Origin: a virus
Taxonomy: Duplodnaviria; Heunggongvirae; Uroviricota; Caudoviricetes
Virus record (IMG/VR): IMGVR_UViG_2778261256_000004
Coordinates: 1 to 22,473 of that record
Reading direction: 5' to 3' (one strand)
DNA length: 22,473 nt
The translations under genes and the position numbers were made by a program. This document shows, one piece after another, positions 21,452-22,473 of the stretch (its first letter is position 1; each line of letters begins with the position of its first letter). The notes under the pieces were generated by a model, which searched no databases, was not told the DNA's origin, and saw nothing but the letters and a program-made list of their open reading frames with translations.

Positions 21452-21640
21452 ATGGTAGTGCACATCAACATCGGGAGAATAATCGTGTCATCCAAGGTTA
21501 ATTATGAGTCGCTGGCATCGGTCATGCCGCGTAATGAACAGGAAACAGATGCTGTAGTGGACCCTGTAATCGCTGAAATGAATGCTCGCCTGGAGGCTGA
21601 ATTTGCAGTTGAGAATGAACATACCACCCAGGGCGACTAG
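21452..21640 (+). CDS. Possible small acidic protein (doubtful)
   Basis: 62-aa track ORF. A GTG about 35 nt in follows a GGGAG RBS. The 3-prime end overlaps the start of the next gene by about 60 nt. No motif. Confidence 0.3.
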   Translation: MVVHINIGRIIVSSKVNYESLASVMPRNEQETDAVVDPVIAEMNARLEAEFAVENEHTTQGD

Positions 21641-22244
21641 GACTGTTTTTTGTGTCGGTAGCGGTCCGTCACTCACTCGTGAGGACTGTGCTGCTATAGA
21701 AAAAACTGGCTGTTCAATCATCGCGGTTAACAATTCCTGGCAGATGTTCGATGACATTTATGCCTTATACGCCGGTGATTTGTCATGGTGGAAGCAATAC
21801 GGATCCACCATACCGGGAGGGAGATTCCGCAAAGTGACAGCCAACCTGGCGGCGGCGAAATCATTTTCGTTGGAGTACAGGCGATATTGTGGACCGGCGG
21901 AAGGGGTAAATAGCGGCGCGCAGGCTATCAGTCTGGCTGCTGAATCAGGGGCTGAAGTAGTGGTATTAGTCGGCTATGACTGTTCTCTGCAAAACGGCCT
22001 TCATTGGCATGGCGCGCACCCTCAAGCACTACGGAATCCAACGCAGGTGTCTATTTCAAAATGGCAACAGCAGTTCCTGGATACCCGCAAAAAACACGCA
22101 GATTTACATATTTTGAATGCAAGTAGGAGCAGTGCAATTCAATGTTTCCCAAGAATAAATTTAGAGGCAGTGATCGCGTTATTATCGTCGGCAGTGGCCC
22201 AAGCGCCGCAAACTTTGTTGCGCCGCGCGGAGTGCCGATTATAG
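21582..22244 (+). CDS. Hypothetical protein with GSGPS ... IIAVN motif (DUF115/MptE-like fold suspected)
   Basis: 220-aa track ORF; the likelier start is the ATG at 21615 (MNIPPRATRTVFCVGSGPSLT...). Motif CVGSGPSL followed by SIIAVNNSW. The last 100 nt overlap the next paralogous ORF in another frame. Confidence 0.5.
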   Translation: MLAWRLNLQLRMNIPPRATRTVFCVGSGPSLTREDCAAIEKTGCSIIAVNNSWQMFDDIYALYAGDLSWWKQYGSTIPGGRFRKVTANLAAAKSFSLEYRRYCGPAEGVNSGAQAISLAAESGAEVVVLVGYDCSLQNGLHWHGAHPQALRNPTQVSISKWQQQFLDTRKKHADLHILNASRSSAIQCFPRINLEAVIALLSSAVAQAPQTLLRRAECRL

Positions 22245-22396
22245 CGGTCAATGGGGCCATCGACTGGCTTAACCGCGCTTCTTATTTTTTCACCCTTGAT
22301 CCATCCCCAGACAATATGCGGCGCGTTGGTCGTGGCCGCCGTCGCCGTGGTGTTTGTTATTGCATGGCACTACCCGATGTTAAAGAACGTGAAGTC
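22142..22396 (+). pseudogene. Second GSGPS-motif paralog, truncated by IS10 insertion
   Basis: ATG at 22142. The N-terminus RVIIVGSGPSAANF ... IIAVNGAIDW repeats the motif of the preceding gene. The reading frame runs straight into the IS10 terminal repeat at 22397 with no stop before the junction. Confidence 0.5.
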
Positions 22397-22473
22397 CTGA
22401 TGAATCCCCTAATGATTTTGGTAAAAATCATTAAGTTAAGGTGGATACACATCTTGTCATATGATCAAATGGT
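22397..22473 (+). mobile_element. IS10 (Tn10-type) outside end, partial: first 77 bp of the element, body beyond the window
   Basis: CTGATGAATCCCCTAATGATTTTGGTAAAAATCATTAAGTTAAGGTGGATACACATCTTGTCATATGATCAAATGGT matches the IS10 outside-end terminal sequence as I recall it, base for base over the 77 bp visible. Confidence 0.85.

Follow-up and report, generated by a model that had tools for sequence, protein, structure and literature searches.

An IS10 insertion in pmgP of a P1-like plasmid prophage and the overlapping gene pair pmgO-pmgP

The gene pmgP of a P1-like phage is interrupted by the insertion sequence IS10 in the 22,473-nucleotide stretch of viral DNA analysed here (the window; positions 1 to 22,473 of IMG/VR record IMGVR_UViG_2778261256_000004). 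It is very probable that the window derives from a P1-like prophage with a single IS10 in pmgP, and that the overlap between pmgP and the gene preceding it, pmgO, is the wild-type arrangement of two ancient paralogs sharing a DUF115 fold. The flanks are 98 to 100% identical to P1 and the last 77 bp are identical to IS10, so the truncation, the shared motif, the overlap and the IS end are not chance features. The sequence is known throughout (P1 pmgO and pmgP, and IS10); the insertion site alone is new.

Identity and layout of the window

Judged from its gene order (parB/parA/repA ... dmt ... tRNAs ... ban ... tail genes 5, 6, 24, 7, 25, 26 ... pmgL-M-N-O-P) and from its alignment to P1-like genomes, the window comes from a P1-like (Punavirus) plasmid prophage. 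Alignment of the full window to such genomes covered 85 to 97% of its length, depending on the relative, and the matched part was 96 to 98% identical. Phage P1 shows 98.3% identity to positions 20800-22396. When positions 20800-22473 were compared with phage records by megablast, P1, P7, SJ46, RCS47 and other Punavirus records matched at 96 to 98% identity, and in all of these records homology ended exactly at window position 22396.

According to the P1 record AF234172, the genes matched by the window are pmgL, pmgM, pmgN, pmgO (220 aa) and pmgP (208 aa); in P1, ppp and pmgQ come next. The transcription unit pmgN-pmgO-pmgP-ppp-pmgQ begins with pmgN, which overlaps the annotated start of pmgO by 59 nt. 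The promoter PpmgN and the operator Oppp are located before pmgN and, as predicted in the P1 annotation, control the operon that IS10 interrupts (Table 1). Within Oppp, the window differs from P1 at position 21441.

Table 1. Features at the right-hand end of the window (positions are those of the window)
Feature	Position	Strand	Basis or remark
Predicted sigma-70 promoter PpmgN	21386-21412	+	transferred from AF234172 annotation
C1 repressor operator Oppp	21425-21441	-	transferred from AF234172 annotation
pmgN	21485-21640	+	P1 annotation 79495-79650 transferred via ungapped alignment
pmgO, intact, 220 aa	21582-22244	+	100% identical to P1 PmgO (0/220 differences)
pmgO/pmgP overlap, 103 nt	22142-22244	+	annotated likewise in P1; pmgP in -1 frame relative to pmgO
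pmgP 5' fragment, codons 1-85 of 208	22142-22396	+	identical to P1 pmgP codons 1-85
Target-site duplication, left copy, CGTGAAGTC	22388-22396		same 9 bp on the partner contig, at the inside end
IS10 outside end, nt 1-77	22397-22473	+	77/77 identical to IS10 of EF120459
RNA-OUT antisense RNA gene, 3' 32 nt (IS10 nt 46-77)	22442-22473	-	Rfam RF00240

The IS10 insertion and its consequences

The last 77 bases of the window, which start with CTGATGAATCCCCTAATGATTTT, had been recognized as the IS10 outside end in a first-pass annotation made from the sequence alone, and their complete identity to the IS10 of EF120459 bears this out. They represent the outside end because the transposase CDS of EF120459 starts at nt 108 from the matching end. 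The transposase gene and pmgP are codirectional, and the outside end faces the 5' part of pmgP. After ...GTGAAGTC, P1 goes on AGAGATGG while the window goes on CTGATGAATCCCC / CTGATGAA; the boundary at 22396 is therefore unambiguous. A 94-nt query over the IS10 end matched 2385 records and was found in 1930 of 5426 complete E. coli genomes, and 1670 E. coli records matched the end-spanning query at 99% or above. The assembly most likely broke at the repeated IS, which would be why the window stops 77 nt into the element.

The other junction was sought with one degenerate pattern describing both, consisting of 18 nt of flanking pmgP sequence and then one of the two IS10 ends, outside or inside. 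Among IMG/VR viral contigs this pattern had one match, the reciprocal junction on contig IMGVR_UViG_2778261256_000008 (L003, the partner contig). The end of this contig consists, in order, of the reverse complement of the 3' part of pmgP, GACTTCACG and CTGAGAGATCCCCTCATAATTTC, the last being the IS10 inside end. GACTTCACG (positions 12611-12619) is the reverse complement of CGTGAAGTC and abuts the inside end directly. The final 158 nt of the contig (positions 12620-12777, starting with CTGAGAGATCCCCTCATAATTTC) correspond to IS10 nt 1172-1329 in inverted orientation; they show 99.3% identity to IS10 over about 148 comparable nt (nt 1172-1318) and end in the terminal CTGAGAGATCCCC.

CGTGAAGTC borders both IS10 ends and constitutes a 9-bp target-site duplication, which is a hallmark of IS10. 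It fits only three of the six specified positions of the hotspot consensus NGCTNAGCN, and the insertion is presumably at a non-hotspot site. Of the features that the first-pass annotation had proposed to look for beyond the window, the second end of IS10 and the duplicated 9-bp target are present on the partner contig. The comparison with IS-free relatives that it had also proposed revealed an intact pmgP of 208 codons, P1 and ten IS-free IMG/VR relatives being contiguous across the insertion site.

Excision of the element by connecting window positions up to 22396 with the partner contig, minus one copy of the 9 bp, reconstructs a PmgP of 208 aa which does not differ from that of P1 at any residue, either in the 85 encoded by the window or in all 208. 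The 4 kb of the partner contig downstream of reconstructed pmgP are 99.8% identical to P1 and contain ppp and pmgQ. The matching 9-bp site and the perfect reciprocal reconstruction indicate that the window and the partner contig would belong to one genome and one molecule. A SNP-rich 69-mer from the window matched ten other P1-like contigs, none of them from UViG 2778261256.

Canonical Tn10 shows two outside ends. The element in pmgP has one outside and one inside end and would therefore be a lone IS10; canonical Tn10 does not fit this combination of ends. A simple insertion of this kind, with its 9-bp target duplication, would contain the full 1329-bp body of IS10 and an intact transposase (402 aa). 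The interior of the element (nt 78-1171) is assembled in neither contig, only nt 1-77 and about 1172-1329 being seen, which leaves room for a larger IS10-bounded unit inserted whole, such as two direct IS10 copies with cargo or a rearranged Tn10 derivative. Such a unit is very unlikely, as the outside end, the inside end and the 9-bp duplication exactly fit a single IS10. It is vanishingly improbable that an assembly error or chimera at the contig end produced the IS10 tail and that pmgP is intact in the real genome. The IS sequence does occupy the last positions of the window and has exactly 77 nt, which would be a typical k-mer length for an assembler overhang, but the reciprocal junction, with the identical 9-bp target, was found on an independent contig, and a chimera would not make a matching duplication.

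The junction in the window was absent from 50,697 phage records, 72,556 plasmid records and 5,426 complete E. coli genomes, and the degenerate pattern for either junction had no match in GTDB species-representative genomes or JGI metagenome contigs. On these searches the pmgP::IS10 allele is private, and it is presumably recent. The locus had been described as a recently rearranged spot, which is apt for one recent simple insertion and in no other sense.

The reading frame that begins at the ATG at 22142 runs in frame into the IS and is free of stops to the window end. Insertional truncation after about 85 codons had been proposed, and exactly 85 codons (255 nt) precede IS10. If the sequence of reference IS10 is used beyond nt 77, the frame is predicted to continue for 55 IS-encoded residues to a stop at about IS10 nt 166-168, so that the truncated product would have 140 aa; its reading frame in IS10 differs from that of the transposase. 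The C-terminal 123 residues of PmgP are lost through the insertion. An alignment of 38 PmgP homologues has 34 invariant columns; 22 of them, G131-N132-S133, D155 and H173 among others, fall beyond residue 85, so the allele should be null.

The course of events can be envisaged as follows. One IS10 would have moved by cut-and-paste into pmgP at codon 85/86, duplicating its 9-bp target. PmgP residues 1-85 would be left, extended by the IS-encoded residues, with loss of function as the outcome. From the operon structure, the insertion is probably polar on the downstream genes ppp and pmgQ, and the phage would tolerate the loss. In a genome-wide CRISPRi screen, pmgO, pmgP, ppp and pmgQ were non-essential for P1 plaque formation (PMC10695390), and an earlier deletion survey is cited in that paper for the same result. 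Since these four genes are dispensable for P1 plaques, pmgP::IS10 is expected to be tolerated.

Damaged forms of pmgP also occur elsewhere in the wild. One of the P1-like loci (L016) has a frameshifted form of 137 aa, and protein clusters P0117 and P0119 are of equal length. These alleles are consistent with the dispensability of the gene.

It had also been suggested that an outward promoter of the IS could drive transcription of its flanks. Rfam RF00240 locates the gene for the antisense RNA RNA-OUT on the minus strand at nt 46-115 of the reference IS10 copy (98.8 bits). The first 77 nt of that copy are identical to the last 77 nt of the window, which holds only the 3' 32 nt of the gene. Its promoter, pOUT, is beyond the window end and directed leftwards, antisense to pmgP and pmgO. 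RNA-OUT is 69 nt long and, as the main transcript, normally ends at nt 47, inside IS10 (PMC5006887); activation of flanking genes would thus need read-through. It is a weak possibility that read-through from pOUT would extend antisense over pmgP, pmgO, pmgN, pmgM and pmgL first, and then into the minus-strand tail genes.

By itself the insertion is of low importance, IS10 insertions being common in E. coli and the target gene dispensable for P1 in the laboratory. Its description is of use in correcting the impression of a local duplication and frameshift, in accounting for the contig break and in recording what should be a natural null allele of pmgP.

The overlap of pmgO and pmgP

An overlap of about 100 nt between the two genes, in another frame, had been noted at the outset; its length is 103 nt. 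The same overlap, together with a PmgO of 220 aa, was present in all 10 P1-like loci in which pmgO is readable (L001, L019 and eight of the ten IMG/VR loci). PmgP has 208 aa in eight of these 10, L019 being cut by the locus end and L016 frameshifted. Searches by tblastn with each protein found the pair adjacent in distant phages also, with overlaps of 94 nt in Citrobacter phage phiNP, 70 nt in Cronobacter phage JK004, 37 nt in Escherichia phage IME392 and 4 nt in Xanthomonas phage Xoo-sp13. At every locus examined, the frame of pmgP is -1 with respect to that of pmgO.

The start of pmgP is embedded in conserved sequence of pmgO. In P1, its ATG is formed by the PmgO codons CAA-TGT (Gln-Cys) of a conserved C-terminal 'CF' motif; in the enterobacterial phages it comes from xxA-TGy (X-Cys) codons, in the conserved PmgO C-terminal motif 'CF.R..LE'. 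The sequence TAGGAG (22124-22129) is found within pmgO, 12 nt 5' of the pmgP ATG. Alignment of the PmgO family reveals a conserved core to about residue 198, some 11 residues beyond the pmgP start, whereas residues about 199-220 form a variable, poorly modelled tail (22 residues) encoded in the overlap.

Both proteins contain VGSGPS and IIAVN near the N-terminus, as had been claimed. In PmgO these are residues 25-30 (nucleotides 21654-21671) and 46-50, GSGPS being residues 26-30; in PmgP they are residues 16-21 (nucleotides 22187-22204) and 33-37. BLASTP between PmgO and PmgP aligned the N-terminal part only (14/36 identities, E 0.003), and hhalign related them over 162 columns (probability 97.8%, E 8.7e-13) with 23% identity. 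Identity between the paralogs being only about 23%, the duplication would be ancient. These comparisons mark pmgO and pmgP as ancient paralogs. Their overlapping tandem is the normal arrangement in wild-type P1.

Programmed ribosomal frameshifting at the -1 overlap, giving a PmgO-PmgP fusion protein in P1, is highly improbable. The constant -1 frame would agree with it, as would two heptamers of the form X_XXY_YYZ in the pmgO frame where the overlap begins (T_TTC_CCA at 22145 and A_AAT_TTA at 22157) and the existence of a natural in-frame PmgO::PmgP fusion protein, P0051 (376 aa, in phage context). However, neither heptamer is kept in JK004, phiNP or IME392, and frameshifting as the main reading was rejected for this lack of conservation. 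Furthermore, pmgP has its own ATG with the upstream TAGGAG, and the overlap in Xoo-sp13 is a plain ATGA.

From the VGSGPS...IIAVN motif common to both genes and from their overlap in different frames, the first-pass annotation had suggested that a GSGPS gene was duplicated and then frameshifted. A recent local event of this kind as the origin of the overlapping paralogs is extremely unlikely and does not agree with their distribution: the same arrangement is annotated in reference P1 and found in the 10 readable P1-like loci, and the pair, with its shorter overlaps, recurs in Citrobacter, Cronobacter, Escherichia and Xanthomonas phages. Nor does it agree with divergence to about 23% identity at the profile level, or with a PmgO core that passes the start of pmgP, which means that the overlap is built into both genes. 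A recent duplication was also rejected on the BLASTP result, with its few identities confined to the N-terminal part.

Fold, gene module and relation to known systems

The first-pass annotation had suspected a DUF115/MptE-like domain in the two proteins. Against Pfam PF01973, PmgO scored 23.4 bits and PmgP 20.9 bits, with a gathering threshold of 34.6, and only the C-terminal part of the profile was matched. Precomputed PF01973 matches exist in many homologues of PmgO (37 to 74% identical) and of PmgP (51 to 62% identical). In PHROGs, PmgO falls in phrog_4603 (E 4.4e-74) and PmgP in phrog_2111, and each weakly matches the family of the other. The label 'alpha-2,3-sialyltransferase' attached to PmgO originates from PHROG 4603 and from RefSeq naming. 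Sequence searches with PmgO and with PmgQ against PDB chains gave nothing significant, and a search of NCBIfam with PmgP gave just a faint match to WaaZ_KDO_III (E 0.1).

AlphaFold (AF2) models had a pLDDT of 85.6 for PmgO and 92.9 for P0052, which is 99% identical to PmgP. In Foldseek comparisons, the Maf glycosyltransferase 5MU5 was the sole significant match of PmgO among the 50 PDB matches listed (E 4e-5, probability 1.00, TM 0.56), and Cst-II was absent from those 50. The top match of PmgP was again 5MU5 (E 1e-3, probability 1.00); PmgP also matched 8SD5, the MptE HPPK of M. jannaschii (probability 0.99), and, weakly, Cst-II (E 0.12-0.9, TM 0.36-0.51). From the predicted structures, PmgO and PmgP appear to have a Maf/MptE/Cst-II-like (DUF115) fold, as superfamily relatives and not as members of PF01973 by the Pfam criterion. 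The original suspicion thus holds at the level of superfamily and fold (5MU5, 8SD5) and fails at the Pfam threshold.

Homologues of PmgQ follow the O-P pair in JK004, phiNP, IME392, a Logan contig and Xoo-sp13. PmgQ belongs to phrog_1962, annotated as 'glycosyltransferase'. The PmgQ of Xoo-sp13 carries a fused TylF-type methyltransferase, and the cluster of IME392 includes a GT1-like gene. This gene context supports a sugar-modifying role for O-P-Q, and pmgO-pmgP-pmgQ is a glycosyltransferase-like module, conserved in distant phages. The literature found on the function of pmgO, pmgP and pmgQ comprised essentiality data, with no paper on substrate or target.

A more specific proposal, put forward tentatively and on balance doubtful, is that a Maf-like enzyme of two obligate subunits, PmgO and PmgP, works with the PmgQ glycosyltransferase in phages from P1 to Xanthomonas jumbo phages. 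It is suggested by the conserved order of pmgO and pmgP, always in the -1 frame, by the start of pmgP inside conserved X-Cys codons of pmgO, by the existence of an O::P fusion and by the fusion of PmgQ with a methyltransferase in Xoo-sp13. Possible targets of the module are a virion protein and a glycan on the host surface. If PmgO and PmgP were such subunits, the IS10 allele in the window would be a natural knock-out of a glycosylation module. The lead of wider value is the O-P-Q module itself: many unrelated phages have it, the gene overlap is conserved, and one fusion at least exists. The module could steer experiments on these 'putative morphogenetic' genes of P1.

Three known systems resemble what is described here. 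The locus in the window has the same overlap, neighbours and C1-operator position as the pmgN-pmgO-pmgP-ppp-pmgQ operon of P1 (hdmA-hdmB-hdmC in P7), from which it differs in that pmgP is intact in P1 and broken by IS10 after codon 85 in the window. The element agrees, in all parts seen in the window and the partner contig, with IS10 (IS4 family; IS10-Right of Tn10), of which the body from nt 78 to 1171 is unseen. The PF01973/DUF115 superfamily, with the Maf flagellin glycosyltransferases, the MptE-like HPPK enzymes and the GT42 sialyltransferases Cst-I/II, resembles PmgO and PmgP in its Rossmann-like fold and in a G-x-G-P-S motif of nucleotide-binding type near the N-terminus; for Cst-II the structural match is weak and concerns PmgP. 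The reaction of PmgO and PmgP might be glycosyl transfer or that of a pyrophosphokinase. Maf has 632 aa, whereas PmgO and PmgP are shorter, single-domain proteins of 208 to 220 aa, and compared with Maf, MptE and GT42 they carry motifs specific to their own families, such as GYDCS...HWHGxH in PmgO.

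pmgP alleles and contig ends

Both contigs stop inside IS10, the window after 77 nt (22397-22473) and its partner contig (L003) after 158 nt of the opposite end (12620-12777), which suggests that a short-read assembly was broken at a multi-copy IS. A damaged allele distinct from the IS10 one is found in another P1-like locus, L016 (IMGVR_UViG_2534681832_000017), where a 1-nt indel in pmgP leaves a 137-aa product. Since protein clusters P0117 and P0119, with up to 14 members, have the same length as this product, pmgP is inactivated repeatedly in natural P1-like plasmids.

Differences from P1 and the start of pmgO

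Substitutions relative to reference P1 are clustered, with 15 in pmgM inside an 85-nt patch (window 20992-21076) and 7 immediately downstream of the C1 operator Oppp (window 21441-21466). A single substitution falls in pmgO, and the pmgP fragment is free of them. The clusters look like patches of mosaic recombination.

The annotated start of pmgO (21582) gives a 59-nt overlap with pmgN. Residues 1-15 of PmgO (window 21582-21626) are disordered in the structure model (pLDDT <50) and PmgO homologues begin near residue 17-20; the true start could instead be ATG 21615. The pmgO/pmgP overlap holds two -1 slippery-type heptamers (see the table), neither of which is shared by the more distant O-P pairs.

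The window also carries three tRNA genes, whose counterparts in RCS47 are annotated as tRNA-Asn, tRNA-Thr and tRNA-Met, the set expected for P1-like phages. The RCS47 homologue of dbn, the gene downstream of ban, is labelled 'glycosyltransferase family 4 protein' in RefSeq (L019 16036-17034); by that label dbn is a further sugar-transferase-like gene within the window. It is likewise reported to be non-essential.

Coordinates of features in the window and in related sequences
Feature	Sequence	Position	Remark
PmgO homologue	L004, Citrobacter phage phiNP	1992-2594	unannotated in GenBank record
PmgP homologue	L004	2501-3121	from ATG 2501
PmgO homologue	L006, Cronobacter phage JK004	1932-2570	unannotated in GenBank record
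P0051 (376 aa)	L008, Logan SRR30564046 contig (61.9 kb)	4001-5131	PmgO-like and PmgP-like domains in one frame
PmgQ homologue	L001	6640-7341	phrog_1962 'glycosyltransferase'
PmgQ homologue	L004	3111-3776	phrog_1962 'glycosyltransferase'
PmgQ homologue	L005	4061-4690	phrog_1962 'glycosyltransferase'
PmgQ homologue	L006	3168-3881	phrog_1962 'glycosyltransferase'
PmgQ homologue	L007	3124-4449	phrog_1962 'glycosyltransferase'
PmgQ homologue	L008	5128-5757	phrog_1962 'glycosyltransferase'
Heptamer T_TTC_CCA	window	22145-22151	pmgO frame, beginning of overlap
Heptamer A_AAT_TTA	window	22157-22163	pmgO frame, beginning of overlap
tRNA gene	window	11134-11206	
tRNA gene	window	11212-11284	
tRNA gene	window	12924-12996	

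The O-P pair and PmgQ in distant phages

In the GenBank record of phiNP, the PmgP homologue is begun at a later GTG (2591) and not at ATG 2501, a start apparently chosen to dodge the natural overlap. The natural in-frame 'Rosetta stone' fusion P0051 suggests that PmgO and PmgP act jointly. Its gene stands in phage surroundings, with portal, holin and lysis genes and after them a PmgQ homologue. A PmgQ homologue lies 3' of the O-P pair in all distant phages examined, and in Xoo-sp13 a TylF-type methyltransferase is fused to the PmgQ domain. In P1 the ppp phosphatase gene is situated between pmgP and pmgQ, whereas JK004 lacks ppp at that place.
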